A stretch of DNA of 64,000 nucleotides, from IMG/VR virus record IMGVR_UViG_3300011335_000775, positions 49,803-113,802 of that record, one strand, 5' to 3'. Origin of the DNA: a virus. The translations under genes and the position numbers were made by a program. The notes beneath the pieces were generated by a model that did no database searches, was not told the DNA's origin, and worked only from the letters and a program-made list of their open reading frames with translations. This document shows positions 11,614 through 49,984 of this stretch, one piece after another; position 1 is the first letter of the stretch; each line of letters opens with the position of its first letter.

Positions 11614-13143
11614 ATGTTTCTCAGTCTTATTACTTTAGCTGTGGCCCTGGGGCTCAGCATCATTGCTGCATATTACAGCATTGCTGGGCTCACAGCCATT
11701 TTTGCCTCAGCTGTGGTACCCATTATAATCATGGGCTCTATACTAGAGTTAGCCAAAGTTGTAGTCACATTATGGTTACACGAATACTGGGCACGATGTC
11801 GCTGGCTAATGAAGCTGTATCTAGTGCCAGCAGTGATCATGCTGATGTTGATTACCAGTATGGGTATATTTGGATTCTTGTCAAAAGCTCACAGTGATCA
11901 AAGTTTAGTATCAGGTGATGTCACAGCAAAGATTTCCATATATGATGAAAAAATCAAGACTGAGAAGGAGAACATAGATGTTAGTCGTAAATCCCTTAAA
12001 CAAATGGATGAGGCCGTGGACCAAGTTATGGGTCGTAGTTCAGACGAAAAAGGTGCAGACAAGGCTGTGGCTGTACGCCGTGGCCAACAAAAGGAGCGTC
12101 AGCGCCTGCTTGCGGAAATCTCAGAAAGTCAAAAACGTATCACAGCACTTAATGAACAACGTGCTCCTATTGCTGCCGAAGTTCGCAAAGTTGAAGCAGA
12201 AGTAGGACCAATCAAATATATTGCTGCACTGATCTACGGCGATAATCCCGACGTTAATATCCTGGAACGTGCTGTACGTTGGGTGATCATCCTGCTGGTA
12301 TGTGTGTTTGACCCCTTGGCCATAATGATGTTGTTGGCTTCCACTGAAAGTTTAAAGTGGGCTAGAACACCACCAAAGAAAGAAGTCCAGGAAGAAATTC
12401 CTGAAGATGGATACAAAACACCTTGGTCAGAGTCAGTTACTGAATCAGAAGAAAAGGACTTTGACGTAAATGATCATCCATACTTGTTTACAGCACCGGG
12501 CGGTACTAGTCCACCGGGCATAGACCCTGCCCCAATACAGGTATACAACGAGCCCGGCGAAGAAACATTGGAGCCTTGCTATAAGTGTGGCACACCATTA
12601 ATTAATGCGCCTGGTATTGGACCGTTTTGCCCAAACAAAGAATGTGATGTTGTTGATAGTTGGGCTTTACAAGATAATGAACCAGTCAAGATAACATATA
12701 TCTCACCAACTGCACATCTTGATGACGAACGTTATGATGATGACAGTCCCGAGATGAAACAGGCCAAAGCACAATGGAAAGCTGACAACCCAGGCGACAC
12801 TCTCAAACGACATCGTTACCTGCTTGAAACAGGATCAATCGATCAGTTGCCATGGATGCAATATCTAAACAAATTGCCCGAATCGGGATTTGGTCCTGTG
12901 CTGCCCGAGTACGGTTCCAAGGGTGATACATTTATATCCACTATAGGGATCCCACATCGGCTATATAAACATAATGGTACCGAGTGGATCAACATTGACA
13001 ATACTCAACAACACAGCTATACTTACGATACAGCCTACATTGATCATTTGATCAGTCAAATTGAAAAAGGTCTATACGACCCCGACATGCTGAATGATAG
13101 CGAACGTGACCAGATTGAACAACGAATAACACAAAATAAATGA
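11614..13143 (+). CDS. Multi-pass membrane protein with coiled coil (DUF4407-like) and CxxC region
   Basis: Three N-terminal TM helices, [10 protein letters not shown], coiled coil, VFDPLA TM; TAAATA-N5-ATG start. Confidence 0.7.
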
Positions 13144-14342
13144 CCAAAGAAACATATACCTCTTGCAGCTTTTGTGGCAAGAACAAAGACTCAGTTAAAA
13201 AACTCATAGTTGGTGAATACGCAGGTATTTGTAACGAATGTGTGGAATTTTGTCGAGATCTACTTACAGATGAACCAGTTGTAACTGTCCCTGACCATCC
13301 ATCAGACAAGATGGATCCTATTGCTTTAAAGAACTATTTGGATCAATACGTGATTGGGCAACATGCTGCCAAAATCATGTTGGCCGTGGCCATTGTAAAT
13401 CATTACAAACGCATCAGCAAAACCACAGCGGAGCCCGAACTAGACAAGGCCAATATCTTGATGTTAGGACCCACTGGGTCAGGTAAAACATTGTTGGCCA
13501 AATCAGTGGCACGTTATCTTGACGTTCCGTTTGCCATTGCAGATGCAACATCAATCACAGAAGCAGGCTATGTGGGTGATGATGTGGAAAGCCTTATCAG
13601 CAGACTATACGCAGCATCGGGTAATGATGTGGCCAAAACACAGCAAGGTATTGTGTTTGTGGATGAAATTGACAAGATCTCTCGCAAAGGAGAATCAACT
13701 TCGATCACACGTGACGTATCCGGTGAAGGTGTACAGCAGGCCTTGTTAAAGATGGTCGAAGGTACAGTATGTCGTGTGAGTGCCGGCGGCGGACGTAAAC
13801 ATCCAGGCGGTGAAATGATTGAAATTGATACCAAGAATATCTTGTTCATTGCCGGTGGCGCCTTTGTGGGACTAGACAGTATTGTAAAGAACCGTGTGCA
13901 AGGCACCAGCATTGGATTCAATGCCAGGGTAGAAGCCAACATGGACACAGATCTGGGCATGACCACTCCGGATGATCTAGTAAAGTTTGGAATGATTCCT
14001 GAGTTTGTGGGACGTTTTCCTAACTGGGTCAGCTTGAAAGAACTTTCAAAAGCAGACTTGATCCGTATCCTTACCGAAGTCAAGAACAACTACATTGAGC
14101 AGTATCATTGGCTGTTTAAAGAAGATGGAGTGGAGTTGACATTTACAGCGCCTGCACTGGATCTTATTGCTGAACACACACTGGCCAACAAAACTGGTGC
14201 TCGTGGGCTGCATTCAGAACTGGAACGCACATTGATTCCGCACATGTTTAATCTACGTCGCTATGCCAGCACAGGTATCAAATGTTTGGAAATCGATCCT
14301 GCACAAGTAAACAAACCAACTGCACTAACAGGTACAGACTGA
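13140..14342 (+). CDS. clpX: Clp protease ATP-binding subunit ClpX
   Basis: C4 Zn finger [18 protein letters not shown] pore loop, DEIDK, RKH, IGF loop, TGARGL. Confidence 0.97.
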
Positions 14343-28131: not shown

Positions 28132-28410
28132 ATGTTTACAGCAGACACCATGATCGACACCATTCAAAATGGTAAAAAACAATTCGTTAAGACTTTTGTC
28201 ACCAACGAAACAATGGCCACTTCAATGAATCAATTTGTTGACATCCAAGCCGAATATACCAAGAAAGCTTTCAAAGCATCCACAGATGCAGCCACAGTGC
28301 TCATGCAAGAAGCTATCAAGGTAACTAAAGATGCTTCCAAATTTGACTACGTGAAGTTCGGCGAAGGCATCATGAAAGCCTATCAAACCACGCAGAAAAA
28401 GGGCGCCTAA
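28132..28410 (+). CDS. Phasin-like helical protein
   Basis: Small amphipathic all-helical A/K/T/Q-rich protein; phasin assignment is inference. Confidence 0.5.
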   Translation: MFTADTMIDTIQNGKKQFVKTFVTNETMATSMNQFVDIQAEYTKKAFKASTDAATVLMQEAIKVTKDASKFDYVKFGEGIMKAYQTTQKKGA

Positions 28411-28411
28411 T

Positions 28412-28612
28412 ATGAAAAGCCAAGCATCGCCTTGGCCGGGCGAAATACATCGGTCAGTATTGGATATATCCATTAATGATTTGTTAGATTGGATAAAGGA
28501 TACCTTTACGCCATCATACCGAAAAGAAGTTGAGTCGTATCTAGCCGATTCTACAGATATATTTGATTTAGAACGCAGAATTCAAATTCTACAACGTAGA
28601 GGAATTGTGTAA
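28412..28612 (+). CDS. DUF3563-like protein
   Basis: YLA.STDI.DLERR...L.RR motif. Confidence 0.7.
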   Translation: MKSQASPWPGEIHRSVLDISINDLLDWIKDTFTPSYRKEVESYLADSTDIFDLERRIQILQRRGIV

Positions 28613-28746
28613 TGACCGTATTTAAATCCTTTTATAATTTTTTAGGAAATTATGGACGCTGCTGTGTTGCTGTTCATTTGACTGCACTTGGAGATCATGC
28701 AGGTGCTCAACGAATTATGATGGAAGATTTCCAGGGCTGGATCTAA
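28612..28746 (+). CDS. Small hypothetical protein, 44 aa
   Basis: Manual translation MTVFKSFYNFL...; GAGGA upstream, TAATG coupling. Confidence 0.5.
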   Translation: MTVFKSFYNFLGNYGRCCVAVHLTALGDHAGAQRIMMEDFQGWI

Positions 28747-28765
28747 AAAAGTCTCAAATTCCTGG

Positions 28766-28812
28766 TTGACCACTAATCCGGTTCGTGCTATAATTACAGC
28801 ATAGACCGGATT
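28766..28812 (+). promoter_or_regulatory. Sigma70 promoter embedded in an inverted repeat, driving the cassette array
   Basis: TTGACC-17-TATAAT; arms AATCCGGT(28775)/ACCGGATT(28805). Confidence 0.75.
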
Positions 28813-28828
28813 TTTTACGGAGATTGTG

Positions 28829-28984
28829 ATGAGACCCATGAGTTTTGTGATTGAATTACCTCGACAGCGCCGTCGTGCTGTGGAACTGTACTCACGCGAC
28901 ACACCATTCCGTCACCGTGTGGAGCAGAGCAAAACTCAATATCGTCGTCGTGCTAAACATGTGAAAAAAGGGGCTGAAGAATGA
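28829..28984 (+). CDS. ArfA-like small basic protein, 51 aa
   Basis: Manual translation: ...TPFRHRVEQSKTQYRRRAKH... versus ArfA PLFRQRVE...Y.RK.KH. Confidence 0.55.
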   Translation: MRPMSFVIELPRQRRRAVELYSRDTPFRHRVEQSKTQYRRRAKHVKKGAEE

Positions 28985-29226
28985 ACGAACGAATTGAAAA
29001 ACTTGCCGAACAGTGTCGAATTGAAACTTATGGCGTCAATGGCGAACTGTTGACATTTGGGTTTGACGAAGAAAAATTCGCCGAGTTGATTGTGCGAGAA
29101 CTTTCTGCTGTTGCTAATCATTTTAGTGATGGACATGAAGTGAGACAATTTGACGATAGCAAAAGGTATCTTTATTTTGTTGATATCGGTCAAGTTATTT
29201 TAGAACATTTCGGAGTTGAAGAATGA
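28981..29226 (+). CDS. MNERI/FAELIV/HFGVEE family, copy 1
   Basis: Constant N-terminal, central and C-terminal blocks. Confidence 0.8.
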   Translation: MNERIEKLAEQCRIETYGVNGELLTFGFDEEKFAELIVRELSAVANHFSDGHEVRQFDDSKRYLYFVDIGQVILEHFGVEE

Positions 29227-29465
29227 ACGAACGAATCTTTGAACTGGCTAAACAGGCTGGCCTTATTCAATGGGACTCGCTTCCTTCAGGTGCTAGAACA
29301 CCCGATCACGAAAGTGTTGTCAAGGCACAAAAGTTCGCCGAGTTGATTGTGGCTGAATGTGCTGAGTCGTTGTGGACAGAAGAATGTTACAATAGTGATT
29401 TGGCCTTAGAAGAATTTGAAAAGAATAGTAAGAAGATTCGAGAACATTTCGGAGTTGAAGAATGA
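29223..29465 (+). CDS. MNERI/FAELIV/HFGVEE family, copy 2
   Basis: Same blocks; ATGA overlap. Confidence 0.8.
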   Translation: MNERIFELAKQAGLIQWDSLPSGARTPDHESVVKAQKFAELIVAECAESLWTEECYNSDLALEEFEKNSKKIREHFGVEE

Positions 29466-29833
29466 CCACTGAAATCACTACAGAAATGCTGGACCGTACT
29501 ATTGCATGGTGTGAGCAAAACGCATTTTGGGGCAAACCTTCTGCTGTGCCGCGTATGCTGGATTTCTACTTTGAAAAGACTCGAACCAGTGTGAAAGAAG
29601 ATTGGCCCGAGACATTCACATTTCAGGATCTAGCCAAGGCCCTGGGCGAGTACCCGGTGCGGTATAGGATTTATTACAGTCAAGATAACCTCACTTTACG
29701 ACTGTTTGTATTCAGACCTCGCTGCACTTGGTCTGAAGAAAAAAAGATGTTAGACTTGGGCTTTGTTGTTGCTCAAGATGGTGATACAGAAAACATCCCA
29801 GACCAACCTGTGAAACAAGTGGTGGAAGAATGA
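29462..29833 (+). CDS. Unrelated hypothetical gene embedded in the array
   Basis: Starts and ends at GAAGA-ATGA junctions; ends VVEE. Confidence 0.75.
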   Translation: MTTEITTEMLDRTIAWCEQNAFWGKPSAVPRMLDFYFEKTRTSVKEDWPETFTFQDLAKALGEYPVRYRIYYSQDNLTLRLFVFRPRCTWSEEKKMLDLGFVVAQDGDTENIPDQPVKQVVEE

Positions 29834-30033
29834 ACGAACGAATTAAAGAACTCAGAAAACAGGCAATAGAATTCGCAAATGCCACCGAACGTGATACTGA
29901 CTATAGATGGGATGTAGCATGTGATACAAAGTTCGCCGAGTTGATTGTGAAAGAATGTGCCAATGTTGCTGCCGATCATGATGCATTAGACATTTACGAA
30001 GAGATTAGAGAACATTTTGGAGTTGAAGAATGA
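29830..30033 (+). CDS. MNERI/FAELIV/HFGVEE family, copy 3
   Basis: Same blocks. Confidence 0.8.
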   Translation: MNERIKELRKQAIEFANATERDTDYRWDVACDTKFAELIVKECANVAADHDALDIYEEIREHFGVEE

Positions 30034-30251
30034 ACGAACGAATCGAATCCCTACTACCTACCCCATTTAGAAAACAGGGGCAGCAGATTGAAGCAGACGG
30101 TGAAGTAAATGTATTCTGCGATATGTATTGTAAAGAGCAGATGATTGAATTCGCCGAGTTGATTGTGAAAGAATGTGCTAAATTTTTATGGGACAGTAAT
30201 GACATTTTAGATGAGTATCGTATCAAAAAACATTTCGGAGTTGAAGAATGA
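30030..30251 (+). CDS. MNERI/FAELIV/HFGVEE family, copy 4
   Basis: Same blocks. Confidence 0.8.
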   Translation: MNERIESLLPTPFRKQGQQIEADGEVNVFCDMYCKEQMIEFAELIVKECAKFLWDSNDILDEYRIKKHFGVEE

Positions 30252-30466
30252 AAAAAATTGAATTGGATGGTGAAATTGCAGACGGCATTGCCCTGGCAGT
30301 GCTCAAAGACCAACGTGCTTATCTCAAAAAAGAACTAGCACAATGGAAAAAGAATCCCCGGTCAGATACCAATCCCACTGGCTATTGGCTACATCCTGAC
30401 GATGTGGTAGGCCATGCTCAACTGATTACTGCCCTGGACACAATCATTGAATATTTTGGAGGTTAA
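30248..30466 (+). CDS. Hypothetical protein
   Basis: Starts at the last array junction. Confidence 0.7.
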   Translation: MKKIELDGEIADGIALAVLKDQRAYLKKELAQWKKNPRSDTNPTGYWLHPDDVVGHAQLITALDTIIEYFGG

Positions 30467-30467
30467 C

Positions 30468-30623
30468 ATGACCGCAGACACCCGTGAAATTGTTGAAATT
30501 GAAATTGAACCTGAACTGTTGTATCAGATCATGCTGCTGGCACACGAACAAGATATCACACTGAATCAACTGATTGAACGTGTTCTACGTGAATACATTG
30601 CAACACATACCAATCTAGTATGA
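30468..30623 (+). CDS. Ribbon-helix-helix-like small protein, 51 aa
   Basis: Manual translation; AHEQDITLNQLIE..L motif; GGAGG SD. Confidence 0.6.
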   Translation: MTADTREIVEIEIEPELLYQIMLLAHEQDITLNQLIERVLREYIATHTNLV

Positions 30624-30838
30624 AATACCTACTGCTGGTATTGCTGCTAACAGGGTGTGGTCATTTTTCACCCAAGACATCACCACCCGTGGATGTGAGT
30701 CTTATACCCAATGACTGTGCCAATCAACAACGTATAGTTCGCTGGCTGGAAAGCCAATCACAAGGAGAATGGAATGAACATGTCGCGCAAATCAAAGGCC
30801 GTATCTGGAATCTGCGTTACACTTGCAATCCTGTGTAG
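30620..30838 (+). CDS. Lipoprotein
   Basis: Lipobox LLTGC. Confidence 0.7.
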   Translation: MKYLLLVLLLTGCGHFSPKTSPPVDVSLIPNDCANQQRIVRWLESQSQGEWNEHVAQIKGRIWNLRYTCNPV

Positions 30839-31121
30839 TGGCTGTGCCACATCCAGGCCGCAAGCAATGAACTTTGTGGATTTGGACTATTTCCAAATCA
30901 ACTGCTCTCAAAGATATGAACAAATGGCTCTATTGCAGAGCATGCGTAGCACCCCGGATGATCGACTGTTTGCAAGAGCCAGCAATGCATTGCAACCCTG
31001 GCGAGCATATACCAATCCTGAACAATACAATAACAATGCTGCTCAGGGATATGGACGCAGTGACTGGGTGATCAACCAAAAACTTATTGAACTAAGAGAC
31101 AACTGTAGGAGCAATCCATGA
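30774..31121 (+). CDS. Putative lipoprotein
   Basis: LCSGC lipobox-like motif; AGGAG SD. Confidence 0.6.
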   Translation: MNMSRKSKAVSGICVTLAILCSGCATSRPQAMNFVDLDYFQINCSQRYEQMALLQSMRSTPDDRLFARASNALQPWRAYTNPEQYNNNAAQGYGRSDWVINQKLIELRDNCRSNP

Positions 31122-32433: not shown

Positions 32434-33003
32434 ATGGCAGAAATAGACACCAGCACTTGGTCCCATGCACAACACCTACAGGCCAATGGTATATTTGTGC
32501 TGATGGGGCCTATTGAAACAGACACAGTCAAGCCAGTGATTGAATGGATCTTGAATGAAAACTTTGTGATCAAACGTCGTCACAAAGAACTAATCTTGAG
32601 TATTTGCAGTGAAGGTGGTGATATGAGTGCAGCCTTTGCACTGATTGATGTAATGCGCAGTTCCACAGTGGCTATCAAAACAGTTGGGATTGGGCAAATT
32701 GCATCAGCTGGATTGTTGATATTCTTGGCTGGCACACCCGGACGTAGAACCCTAACACCCAACACCAGTATTCTGAGTCATCAGTTCAGTTGGGGCAGTG
32801 ATGGCAAAGTACATGAATTATTTGCCACCATACGTGAGTTTGAGCTCACACAACAACGCATGGTTCAACACTACAAAGATTGTACTGGTCTAGATGATGA
32901 TGTGATCAAGGCCAAATTGCTGCCGCCACATGATGTTTGGCTTGATGCCACTGAAGCGTTACAGTTGAATATTTGCGATTCAATATCGCAATTGCAACGT
33001 TAA
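32434..33003 (+). CDS. Divergent ClpP-family protease
   Basis: I.S.GG, GQIASAG (Ser), SHQ (His), D.WL.A.EA (Asp). Confidence 0.85.
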   Translation: MAEIDTSTWSHAQHLQANGIFVLMGPIETDTVKPVIEWILNENFVIKRRHKELILSICSEGGDMSAAFALIDVMRSSTVAIKTVGIGQIASAGLLIFLAGTPGRRTLTPNTSILSHQFSWGSDGKVHELFATIREFELTQQRMVQHYKDCTGLDDDVIKAKLLPPHDVWLDATEALQLNICDSISQLQR

Positions 33004-35296: not shown

Positions 35297-35881
35297 ATGT
35301 CAAATCTAGTACCCATTGTTCTCGAACACACATCCAAAGGTGAACGCAGTTACGATATTTATAGTCGCTTGCTACGTGATCGCGTGGTCATGCTGGACGG
35401 AGAAGTCAACGGGCATAGCTCAAGTCTAATCTGTGCGCAGTTATTGTTTTTGGAAGCAGACAATCCGGACAAAGACATCAGCTTGTATATCAATTCGCCG
35501 GGTGGAAGTGTAACAGCAGGGATGGCCATTTATGACACCATGCAGTTTATCAAACCCGATGTTGCAACCATTGTGATGGGCCAAGGTGCAAGCATGGGAT
35601 CGTTGTTAGCAGCAGCTGGAGCAGCAGGCAAACGATTTATTCTGCCCAATGCACGTCACATGATTCATCAACCGTTAGGTGGTGCGTCAGGGCAGGCCAC
35701 AGATGTAGAAATCCAAGCCCGTGAATTGTTACGTTGGAAAAAAGTTCTTACAGACATGTATGTCACACATACCGGCCAATCTTATGACAAGTTACGGGCT
35801 GATATGGAACGTGATAACTTTATGACTGCAGAAGAATCAGTCACATACGGACTAGCCGACAAAGTAATCACCAAACGTTAA
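35297..35881 (+). CDS. clpP: Clp protease proteolytic subunit
   Basis: [36 protein letters not shown]. Confidence 0.97.
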
Positions 35882-36351
35882 TCCGTAGGCCAGATCCATC
35901 CCATGGATTCCAGTTGATGTATCCAGGTGAATACTGGTGTACTAAAATTTAACAGCCATCGCCCATTCCATCCCAGACAACTAATGCCTTGCTGTACTGC
36001 TGGGGGAGGCGGTGTTTGTTGACTATGCCAAGGTTCGGGATACTTGGGTTTATATGTAGCAGCCCAATTGAATTTTGGAGAACAAATACCATTCACGGTA
36101 ATGTTGCCTATGACAATAAATTTGTCTAATCCTTGATCAAGTACACAATCAGCATCTGATTTGTTTAAAAAGTCTACAAATACTGAATGTGTGCCGGGCA
36201 GCAAGTCATTGTTAAATTTTAATACACAAGATTGATTTAAGACTATTTGATCAATGATTACGTCATCAATGCCATAGGCAATTGTTGGTGGTTCTTGATG
36301 ATATGTGGGAAGGACTTCTAGTTCAATGTGTGTGTGATATTTTGTAGTCAT
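35878..36351 (-). CDS. Hypothetical protein accompanying the radical SAM gene
   Basis: LGWNG.W...F.TPVF.W motif; overlaps the upstream gene. Confidence 0.6.
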
Positions 36352-37651
36352 ATTTTTGTAAAAAATCACTCCATTCAGGATAGTGATCTCTGGCGTTCAG
36401 TTTATATGCACTGTCCCAACGACTCAACCACATTACTAATTCTCGCCTGAGATCTTCAGCATTTACAGGCTCGGGTTGTTGTAACATTTGGTAAACTGAA
36501 TGTAATTCATTATACAAGTTAACAGCATTTTGTTCAACCATTCTTGACTGTGACATATCCTGATGTGCGTCACCTGTATGGTTTTGTAATTTTTCTAACA
36601 CACGCTGATATTTAGGCAAATACGATTGACGTATATCCCAGGGCAGTACCGAAACTTGCAAGTATGCTGGATCCCAGCACACATTGTTTTCGGTTATGAT
36701 GTTGTTGTCTAAAAAATATTCTATTAGTTCGGGGAAAGTCGAAACTGATAGTAATGACACAACTGGTTTTAAGCAAATAGCAAATGTATCAGTTCGGTGT
36801 TTTAAATACTTGCTAACATTGGCTAAGAATAATTCTTTGTTTAGCCCTTGCCGAATGTAGTAATTATTGTCTGATATACTTTCTATACTGATATCAATAT
36901 CGGCTCTACGAAATTTCTGCATCTTTTGTACTAGTTCTGGAGAATACAAGGTGCCATTGGTAACAAAACTTATAGCAAAGTCGGTTCGCCCATGCTTGAT
37001 AAAGAAATCAAAAAATTGTTCTAGTCTAGGACTCATAGTGGGTTCGCCACCCATGAAATGCACACTTTGCAAATTTTTTATACTCAAAAGTTCATGACAA
37101 AATTTATCCCAAGTTGCGTCATTATCAGTCCAGTTTATTCTTGTAGGTGTTTTACGATCTAGCAATCCCCAGATTTTGTATTTGCTGGCAATTTGTGTAC
37201 TCACACCAGGATGACAAAATTTGCAGGCCAAATTACATTCGTTGCCCATGTTAATATGAAAGTCAATGGGCATTAGATGATCTACTTTGCCTTGAAATTT
37301 TGACAGGTGGGGACTTTGTGCAAAACTTTCGTCAAATGCTTGCCGGGTAAAAATTACACTGCGCCAGTTCTGAGCAAGACGATAACTGGCATTGCCATGC
37401 TGTTCTTCGGCAGCACACCCAGAGCAAAGATCAATGGGGGTGTCTCCTAACATATTACGACGATATTCATTCATAATGTCGCTGTTGTACCAGTCACTGA
37501 TACTGTGAGTATGTATGTTATATCCAGAATCGGATAGTTTTTGGAACCCAGGAACGTTTGATCTTTCTGCGCAACACATTCCGAACTTACCATCCTGATA
37601 TAATTGAAAATTAAACCAGGGCACGTTGCAAAATATATTTTTATTAGCCAT
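36323..37651 (-). CDS. Radical SAM enzyme with N-terminal SPASM/Twitch-like Cys cluster
   Basis: CNLACKFC, GGEP, TNGT; FC..PW...CC...C..C N-terminus. Confidence 0.88.
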   Translation of the reverse strand: MANKNIFCNVPWFNFQLYQDGKFGMCCAERSNVPGFQKLSDSGYNIHTHSISDWYNSDIMNEYRRNMLGDTPIDLCSGCAAEEQHGNASYRLAQNWRSVIFTRQAFDESFAQSPHLSKFQGKVDHLMPIDFHINMGNECNLACKFCHPGVSTQIASKYKIWGLLDRKTPTRINWTDNDATWDKFCHELLSIKNLQSVHFMGGEPTMSPRLEQFFDFFIKHGRTDFAISFVTNGTLYSPELVQKMQKFRRADIDISIESISDNNYYIRQGLNKELFLANVSKYLKHRTDTFAICLKPVVSLLSVSTFPELIEYFLDNNIITENNVCWDPAYLQVSVLPWDIRQSYLPKYQRVLEKLQNHTGDAHQDMSQSRMVEQNAVNLYNELHSVYQMLQQPEPVNAEDLRRELVMWLSRWDSAYKLNARDHYPEWSDFLQKYDYKISHTH

Positions 37652-37759
37652 ATATCTATTTATTAGCATCAATTGTTACTGCAATATTTACTCTGAGTTG
37701 GATGGGCACACGCCGGGAGGAAATGTTGTTCTATCACTTTTCAATCACAACAAGATTTA

Positions 37760-39594: not shown

Positions 39595-39619
39595 AAAAGC
39601 CCCTTCCGGGGCTTTTTTT
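39595..39619. terminator. Bidirectional terminator
   Basis: AAAAGCCCC-TTCC-GGGGCTTTTTT between convergent genes. Confidence 0.85.
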
Positions 39620-40079
39620 ATGCAGCGTCTACAAACTTTTTGCTTCTCTGAGTCATTGATATTTTCCTTTTGGTCTCCTCAGATTGGACCCTTCCTGGTT
39701 TTCCTTTCTTAGACATGCTCATTTTAAGTCTTGCCTCTTCAGACTGTTTACGACCCTTAAACCCAACCATGTTTTCTTTTATTTTTTGTCTATGGGAAAT
39801 AGATAGTTTTTTACCAATCGGATTTGGTGGTAATCCACCACCTTCGGCAATGTTTAAACCAATGTTGCGTGTTGGACGCAACGATTTTTCTACTTGTTTA
39901 CAATAGAGTTTATCACCATAAAGAAAAACATCTACTGTTCTGTTGTCCAGAAAGTTATGTTTTCTTCTGTGTTCTTTAAGTCTGCGAGTTAGATCTTTAG
40001 TAATACCAACATAGCCTTGTGTTTCTATGTTGGTTTCTTGATCACTGTGGATCCAGTAGATTAGATATTCCTGATACAT
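39618..40079 (-). CDS. GIY-YIG/NUMOD3 homing endonuclease-like protein
   Basis: IYWI...YVGIT...RR..EH; N...GG; SEETKRKIS. Confidence 0.8.
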   Translation of the reverse strand: MYQEYLIYWIHSDQETNIETQGYVGITKDLTRRLKEHRRKHNFLDNRTVDVFLYGDKLYCKQVEKSLRPTRNIGLNIAEGGGLPPNPIGKKLSISHRQKIKENMVGFKGRKQSEEARLKMSMSKKGKPGRVQSEETKRKISMTQRSKKFVDAA

Positions 40080-49729: not shown

Positions 49730-49984
49730 ATGAAAAAAGACAAAAGCAAAAGCAAATCCGTAGCAATGGATTTTGAAACTCATGTAGATCGATTTGATCT
49801 GGAACAGCAAATCATGCAGTGTTGGAGCATGGTAGATGATGTCAAGCTGTTCGCCGAGCAAGGCGCACCCAGCGATGAATTTGCTGCGCTGGCCACTGTG
49901 TATCATCGCAAGTTTGAAACACTGTTTGACACCTTTGAGCTCATGCTGCGCACAGGTCAATTCACCAATACTGGTTCCAAATGA
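49730..49984 (+). CDS. Hypothetical protein
   Basis: DRFDLEQQIM.CW...DD...Y..KF..L. Confidence 0.65.
   Translation: MKKDKSKSKSVAMDFETHVDRFDLEQQIMQCWSMVDDVKLFAEQGAPSDEFAALATVYHRKFETLFDTFELMLRTGQFTNTGSK

Follow-up and report, generated by a model that had tools for sequence, protein, structure and literature searches.

Short in-frame blocks conserved as DNA mark probable recombination points in an array of small genes from an uncultured lake phage

The 64,000-nucleotide stretch analysed here (the window) comprises positions 49,803 to 113,802 of the 113.8-kb IMG/VR virus record IMGVR_UViG_3300011335_000775 (G000:C1:49803-113802), which stems from an uncultured lake phage, and it contains an array in which four paralogous small genes, p1–p4, are built from three constant blocks that enclose two variable segments, V1 and V2. 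Our data suggest that general homologous recombination at these short, in-frame blocks re-pairs V1 with V2 and swaps whole genes in the array, and we give this reading a probability of about 80%. It is supported that the constant blocks are conserved as DNA well past the need of the protein, across unrelated phages, and that V1 and V2 assort almost freely at the middle block. The original prediction, made from the letters of this stretch, had already regarded the blocks as recombination sites; the DNA-level conservation, the free assortment and the turnover of genes bear this out, whereas its suggestion of an integron-like, dedicated site-specific system was not supported, as no tyrosine integrase or reverse transcriptase was found in the 113.8-kb record and no attC-like repeats at the junctions. 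The elements on which the argument depends are the following, in positions of the window:

28981..29226, + strand: family gene p1, 81 amino acids (aa), MNERI - V1a - KFAELIVRE - V2a - HFGVEE, from the alignment
29223..29465, + strand: family gene p2, 80 aa, with V1b and V2b, from the alignment; AlphaFold2 (AF2) model with a predicted local distance difference test score (pLDDT) of 94.2
29462..29833, + strand: non-family 123-aa gene inside the array, conserved in related phages and used as anchor for orthologous loci
29830..30033, + strand: family gene p3, 67 aa, with V1c and V2c, from the alignment; AF2 model with pLDDT 83.8 and a predicted template-modelling score (pTM) of 0.70
30030..30251, + strand: family gene p4, 73 aa, with V1d and V2d, from the alignment
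29077-29094, 29334-29351, 29932-29949 and 30150-30167, + strand: block B, the in-frame FAELIV block, in four identical copies; interval of the half-gene crossovers
29203-29237 and 30010-30044 (full copies), 28976-28994, 29442-29465, 29825-29843 and 30228-30251 (half copies), + strand: junction block A, which holds the C-terminal HFGVEE, the Shine-Dalgarno (SD) sequence GGAG, the TGA/ATG overlap and MNERI of the next gene

The products of p1–p4 are 36–42% identical and follow the order MNERI / V1 / KFAELIVxEC / V2 / HFGVEE, and in the protein alignment all invariant residues fall within M1 N2 E3 R4 I5, F-A-E-L-I-V and H-F-G-V-E-E. The three blocks are identical or nearly so as DNA, and the remainder of the four genes is unalignable and of differing length, so that alignable variable segments, as they would be expected of ordinary tandem paralogues, were not found. 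The identity of block B in all four copies, including the synonymous positions, had been claimed from the outset and was confirmed: the 18-mer TTCGCCGAGTTGATTGTG occurs exactly four times, with its copies starting at 29077, 29334, 29932 and 30150, and nowhere else in the record even at up to 3 mismatches. The junction 19-mer GAAGAATGAACGAACGAAT also has exactly four copies and none elsewhere in the record, and for GGAGNNNAAGAATGA there were 5 matches against 0.34 expected. If codons were used as in the variable segments of the family itself, a fraction of 1.75e-4 of the FAELIV genes would be expected to carry the exact block B 18-mer, and four exact 18-mers in four genes are therefore far beyond chance. 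Around block B, p3 and p4 are exactly alike over 29 nt.

This conservation extends far beyond the array. We analysed 154 FAELIV genes from 80 loci, which had been retrieved by degenerate peptide patterns and are thus unbiased for codons, and compared the codons of block B with the background elsewhere in the same genes: TTC was used in 83% (background 21%), GCC in 89% (19%), GAG in 91% (17%), TTG in 91% (22%) and ATT in 97% (66%), and the third base of the Val codon was free. The 5' and 3' blocks behave alike, with CGA at 92% versus 16% and GGA at 98% versus 25%. The codons that are held in the blocks at 80–98% are the non-preferred ones, and the family-wide block codons, ATGAACGAACGAATT, TTCGCCGAGTTGATTGT and CATTTCGGAGTTGAAGAATGA, are also those of p1–p4. 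The p-values of these codon tests ignore the relatedness of the genes, and the argument is carried by the effect sizes and by a replicate based on the anchor gene, in which the exact 17-mer was present in 48 of the 67 FAELIV genes from 80 metagenome loci that had been found only via the non-family 123-aa gene. Between loci, the synonymous differences per synonymous site (pS) of the constant blocks amount to 0.19–0.23, far from the 0.93 expected from background codon usage and also below the 0.34–0.39 of cassettes that are still recognisably related; normal synonymous divergence is thus not what the repeats display. The major-codon fraction at conserved residues is 0.84 in the family versus 0.42–0.67 in 13 neighbouring gene clusters of the same loci. 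Codon use, pS and the comparison with neighbouring clusters agree that synonymous sites are far more conserved in the repeats than in other genes, as had been anticipated.

The block identity could possibly result from frequent exchange, which implies a shallow genealogy, from selection for access to a pool of cassettes, or from a separate function at the RNA or DNA level. The last of these can be taken further, to a rival explanation in which the blocks are kept by such a direct function, that is, coupling and ribosome binding at the junction and a site for a regulator, a nuclease or an RNA-binding protein at block B, with recombination as a by-product. It is favoured by the junction itself, which holds GGAG 7 nt ahead of the stop-overlapping ATG and serves more than the family, since, over 200 viral loci, family genes have their stop overlapped by the ATG of a further family gene in 147 cases and by that of a non-family gene in 302. 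It also agrees with the synonymous conservation of all three blocks, not of B alone, and with the core TTCG..GAGTTGA that blocks A and B have in common; the letters of this core, which the original prediction had pointed out, are really there, but the likeness is barely beyond chance, as 86 of 5000 shuffles reach its score. However, the genes and their surroundings showed no excess RNA folding (z = +1.1 and −0.26), neither an Rfam family nor a tRNA was matched, and block B lies in the middle of the gene, where use as a start codon is impossible given the free third base of the Val codon. Moreover, a direct function leaves the near-free assortment of the halves unexplained, and recombination is needed whatever keeps the blocks. 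We therefore regard this rival as unlikely, and the nucleotide identity of the blocks is probably maintained by, or for, exchange.

The independent assortment of the halves, which had been proposed as a test, is evident from database proteins that combine the segments of this array in other ways: P0003 carries V1 of p2 with V2 of p1, P0007 V1 of p1 with V2 of p3, and P0005 V1 of p2 with V2 of p3. V1a of p1 recurs with unrelated V2 segments in P0007-P0009, P0015, P0020 and P0023, and V2b of p2 with unrelated V1 segments in P0018, P0019, P0024, P0029 and P0108. Over 419 distinct V1/V2 combinations, the identity of V1 does not predict that of V2 (r = 0.05), and where V1 is at least 85% identical, V2 is less than 50% identical in 585 of 609 protein pairs. 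Among 337 unique genes compared at the DNA level, for which only contigs were used, the left flank alone is common to 56 pairs, the right flank alone to 54 and both flanks to 7; sharing of one half is 16 times commoner than sharing of both, across contigs from different metagenomes. The breaks are at block B, where blastn matches of the p1–p4 genes end and where similarity collapses at +17..+33 after or −1..−9 before the Phe codon. A clean V1+V2 recombinant is L209:3370-3615, which matches L194:5631-5888 as far as block B and, from there on, the neighbouring L194:5885-6133, and this is the product that would be expected of an unequal crossing-over between neighbouring copies. The cassettes themselves are ordinary coding sequence under purifying selection, with ratios of nonsynonymous to synonymous differences (pN/pS) of 0.23 for V1 and 0.15 for V2, and the diversity therefore comes from the re-pairing of old cassettes and not from hypermutation.

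Gene content at an orthologous position was compared with the help of the 123-aa anchor gene, which is 64–87% identical in the 80 metagenome loci and whose directly upstream slot could be compared in 38 of them. The slot is usually occupied by a family gene, with dozens of different V1/V2 pairings, and this gene already differs in 5 of 15 locus pairs whose anchors are at least 95% identical. At anchor identities of 80–95%, both halves differ in 109 pairs, V2 alone is shared by 5, V1 alone by 2 and both by 3; since differences in both halves dominate, whole-gene replacement at the junction is the commoner event here and half-gene exchange the rarer one. In a few cases, near-identical whole family genes lie in unrelated flanks (L194/L209 and L146/L173). 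A fixed gene order between related phages was thus not observed, and their gene content at this position differs, in agreement with the original prediction.

These data also bear on the simplest alternative, namely that p1–p4 are ordinary tandem paralogues that diverged by point mutations and indels, with the blocks kept for the protein alone and the mosaics being chimeras of metagenome assembly. The blocks do encode the most conserved residues, which are in predicted helices, and the 29 nt shared exactly by p3 and p4 could confuse a very small assembly k-mer. A requirement of the protein does not explain why non-preferred codons are held in the blocks, and the halves are common to contigs of different metagenomes with the excess of one-half sharing given above, while the orthologous slot turns over between close relatives. 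Assembly chimeras are unlikely because most exact overlaps are 17–25 nt, below usual assembly k-mers, and because the mosaics recur on many contigs (P0029 on 26, P0015 on 11). Synonymous sites, unlinked halves and the turnover at the slot led us to reject ordinary tandem paralogy, and we consider this explanation as a whole scarcely credible.

In the mechanism that we favour, the constant blocks would serve as short in-frame homology arms for homologous recombination, both within an array, through unequal crossing-over of tandem copies, and in co-infections, from one phage to another. An exchange in the middle block would re-pair V1 with V2, and one at the junction of a 3' block with the following 5' block would insert, delete or replace whole genes; as the junction supplies the SD sequence and the start codon of the next gene, the reassorted products would remain in frame and translationally coupled. 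The enzyme is presumably a phage recombinase of the RecA/UvsX type or a host recombinase. General homologous recombination fits because a candidate gene is present elsewhere in the record:

G000:C1:4760-5521, outside the window: RecA/UvsX-like recombinase gene (PF00154, E = 9e-17)

Block 8-mers were not notably over-represented elsewhere in the window in a Chi-like test.

Alternatively, a dedicated enzyme could drive the exchange, either a nuclease of the homing type with its cuts in or close to the blocks, followed by double-strand-break repair, or an integron-like site-specific recombinase. For a nuclease speaks a small GIY-YIG-like gene that lies close to the family arrays, in the same orientation, in 35 of the 200 loci, with the nearest family gene downstream in 30 of the 35, and whose stop overlaps a family-gene start in four loci; in addition, a T5orf172-type gene in L118 has an HFGVEE tail, and the window itself has a GIY-YIG/NUMOD3 gene at 39618-40079. 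However, there is no such gene in or beside this array, the nearest being 9 kb off on the other strand, and the GIY-YIG-like gene was not found within the fetched flanks of the other 165 loci. With respect to a site-specific recombinase, the 113.8-kb record contains no tyrosine integrase (PF00589) and no reverse transcriptase (RVT_1), and attC-like inverted repeats are absent from the junctions, which are direct repeats inside coding sequence; the region 28500-30800 has two weak, distant inverted repeats only. Exchange driven by a dedicated enzyme is accordingly quite improbable. The GIY-YIG-like gene encodes about 110 aa with the tail NTFG[VI]K (L134:3172-3675, L020:3818-4156 and 33 other loci), and it may assist the shuffling as a nuclease. 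The gene cluster that was most often recorded beside the family genes turned out to consist of antisense shadow open reading frames (ORFs) of the family itself and was discarded.

Several points weigh against recombination at the blocks as we propose it. The evidence for exchange comes from the comparison of sequences. The exact core of block B, about 17–20 nt, is short for efficient homologous recombination, and because of this a helper such as a nuclease, or very many trials, must be assumed. The conservation of block B could also come from a direct function at the RNA or DNA level that is unrelated to recombination. Homogenisation within arrays is slight (1.88 versus 2.55 differences in 63 nt, p = 0.037), and block conservation is therefore a family-wide property and not the result of local concerted evolution. 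The missing integrase and reverse transcriptase are weak evidence, as the record is only about 33% complete (CheckV). Finally, the best structural matches of the predicted proteins, with Z values of 5.5 and 4.9, are in no case informative on the predicted function.

As to that function, the original prediction had suggested possible anti-defence or host-takeover effectors, and the proteins may together act as binders that can be combined against targets of the host or its defence. We would go further only tentatively: the blocks may be kept identical as DNA for access to a shared pool of hundreds of V1/V2 cassettes, that is, by selection for recombinability, and the family may represent a two-position combinatorial library of small binders against fast-changing host targets, for example defence proteins, a view that is possible but on the doubtful side. 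If it is true, the family would be the shuffling equivalent of a diversity-generating retroelement. Most descriptions of modular exchange in phages concern gene boundaries or tail-fibre genes, whereas here it takes place inside a gene, at a block of about 17–36 nt whose synonymous sites are nearly constant over thousands of otherwise unrelated members, and the halves are separate, old cassettes under purifying selection. The family is thus a natural data set for the minimal homology that sustains recombination, for conservation for recombinability, and for diversification of host interactions without hypermutation. Protein engineers could take an interest in a scaffold of about 70 aa for which the models are of high confidence and in which two segments can be replaced, and any functional result would annotate thousands of genes of the viral dark matter.

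A profile of p1–p4 matches at least 7,990 proteins at 90% clustering, and the family forms 7,766 clusters at 50% identity (E ≤ 1e-3). Its members are unnamed and either metagenomic or assigned to "uncultured Caudovirales phage"; no Pfam or PHROG model matches at E ≤ 0.1, none of the 50,697 GenBank phage records contains a member, and a search of the ESM Atlas gave unnamed viral clusters only. The proteins are about 70 aa long (roughly 65–85 aa, with a limit of about 90 aa in the family definition), and the 200 viral loci have 1–12 copies each. In the AF2 models, p3 is a three-helix bundle and p2 consists of a helix, a beta-hairpin formed by V1 and two long helices; the constant blocks are in predicted helices, and V1 gives a hairpin or a loop. 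Structure searches with these two models against the PDB (via Foldseek and VIA wide) and BFVD returned generic helical matches and uncharacterised proteins of uncultured phages. The Cys of KFAELIVxEC is nearly invariant and the His of HFGVEE is invariant in the family alignments (A3, A5), and the two residues are candidates for a metal site or for a contact between molecules. Long forms that arose by fusion are uncommon (129) and give no functional clue; they comprise tandem fusions and fusions to neighbouring genes or zinc-ribbon domains, as in P0123, P0121, P0122 and P0150, where two family genes are joined in-frame, the 123-aa anchor gene is joined to a family gene, or a family gene to a Lar-like or zinc-ribbon domain.

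The system resembles several known ones without matching any of them. As in integrons, small genes that lack promoters of their own follow one another behind a single promoter, and the content varies between relatives, but the record holds no IntI and the junctions no attC hairpins, and the exchange takes place within coding sequence, in frame, and affects half-genes in addition to whole ones. A diversity-generating retroelement was rejected, since RVT_1 is absent from the record, the segments are unalignable and of unequal length, and the pN/pS values of 0.15–0.23 show no hypermutation. In polymorphic toxins (the VENN motif of CdiA, the Rhs core) and in antigenic variation (Neisseria pilE/pilS, the 17-bp repeats of Borrelia vlsE), a conserved coding boundary lets recombination attach variable modules to a constant part. 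All copies of the array, however, look like complete genes that are expressed, not like orphan or silent cassettes; immunity genes are absent, and exchange occurs between phages too.

In the searched literature, the motifs of the family were not found, and the comparable systems that could be located were two from T4-type phages. In the gp38 adhesins of T-even phages, as well as at the His-box motifs of gp37, conserved glycine-rich motifs separate hypervariable segments, and these motifs can mediate shuffling (Trojet et al. 2011, PMC3157838). Constant framework motifs around hypervariable segments and modular shuffling between phages are common to both, but there is no relation in sequence or fold: the array proteins are small, apparently not virion adhesins, and predicted to be helical, and the family is multi-copy and translationally coupled behind an early-type promoter, with two cassettes and synonymous conservation across thousands of members. 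The second system are the promoter(early) stem-loop (PeSL) cassettes, short repeated DNA among the small non-essential genes of hyperplastic regions, where genes are gained, lost and exchanged through recombination between these elements (Arbiol et al. 2010, PMC2839356). The junction block of the array has a PeSL-like role for whole genes; PeSLs, however, are intergenic cassettes of promoter and terminator, whereas the array repeats are coding, in frame and equipped with SD, stop and start, and halves of genes are swapped at the one that is located in the gene's interior. Between the array genes, no PeSL-type promoter cassette is present, as the single promoter-like site and hairpin are at the head of the operon.

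The remaining elements of the operon, in which seven small genes follow the promoter and each overlaps the next by an ATGA stop/start, are as follows:

28766..28794, + strand: sigma-70-like promoter that heads the operon, TTGACC-17 nt-TATAAT, matching the consensus at 11 of 12 positions and with a TG preceding the −10 hexamer
28775..28816, + strand: 8-bp inverted repeat AATCCGGT / ACCGGATT enclosing the −10 hexamer, then a T-run (TTTT), read directly from the sequence
28829..28984, + strand: non-family Arg-rich 51-aa ORF, whose tail ...GAAGAATGA overlaps the start of p1; weak DUF7230 and phrog_6310 matches only
30248..30466, + strand: non-family gene of 72 aa, with its start codon in the ATGA that it shares with p4; a homologue in L087 (L087:5343-5567) is likewise preceded by family genes

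The four-gene pattern of constant and variable parts behind one sigma70 promoter is therefore present as it had been described, and the stretch has the appearance of an early-type operon with one strong host-type promoter and ATGA-coupled small genes. The three non-family genes (28829-28984, 29462-29833 and 30248-30466) are all joined through the same ...GAAGAATGA stop/start overlap, which confirms that unrelated genes share this junction. Across the loci, an FGV[EK] tail is found on 44 non-family ORFs, among them GIY-YIG-like and T5orf172 genes, and the tail seems to be portable between genes. The 72-aa gene ends in ...EYFGG (30449-30466), where the DNA is 83% like the family 3' block (repeat family D4). 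The inverted repeat at 28775-28816 recalls the PeSL-type promoter/stem-loop cassettes of T4-type phages and is present here in a single copy. Downstream, the operon continues with a 51-aa ribbon-helix-helix gene (Arc/CopG/HicB-like) and with two or more genes for small putative lipoproteins that have a lipobox Cys (30468-30623, 30620-30838, 30774-31121).

Two further observations concern the history of the repeats. Block B (29077-29103) corresponds to block A (29203-29226) plus two small insertions of 9 nt in all, with TGT replacing the TGA stop (TTCG[CC]GAGTTGA...GAATG), and this marginal likeness could point to two minigenes that fused long ago; an ancestral form with a single cassette was not seen in the family, every member having a B-like block. 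The segments 28956-29003 and 29805-29852 are 85% identical over 48 nt (repeat family D2), and as the repeat spans the last ~25 nt of the 51-aa ORF or the 123-aa gene together with the start of the following family gene, it looks like the footprint of a duplication or crossover that reached past the junction block.

The completeness of about 33% suggests a full genome size of ~340 kb, and orthologues of one operon gene were found on lake-metagenome contigs of 371 and 374 kb. The region has no relative among the GenBank phage records by blastn and tblastn, apart from one chance match (E = 3). Large-phage genes in the window encode an ATP-dependent DNA ligase, a ClpX-like ATPase, two ClpP homologues, a UDP-glucose dehydrogenase, a radical-SAM protein and the GIY-YIG/NUMOD3 endonuclease, and two ClpP-family genes (32434-33003, 35297-35881), a ClpX-like ATPase gene (13140-14342) and a radical-SAM/SPASM gene (36323-37672) thus occur in one phage genome. 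A short distance upstream of the promoter are genes for a DUF3563 protein (28412-28612, E = 4e-7) and a phasin-like small protein (28132-28410), two families that are otherwise typical of bacteria and not of phages.

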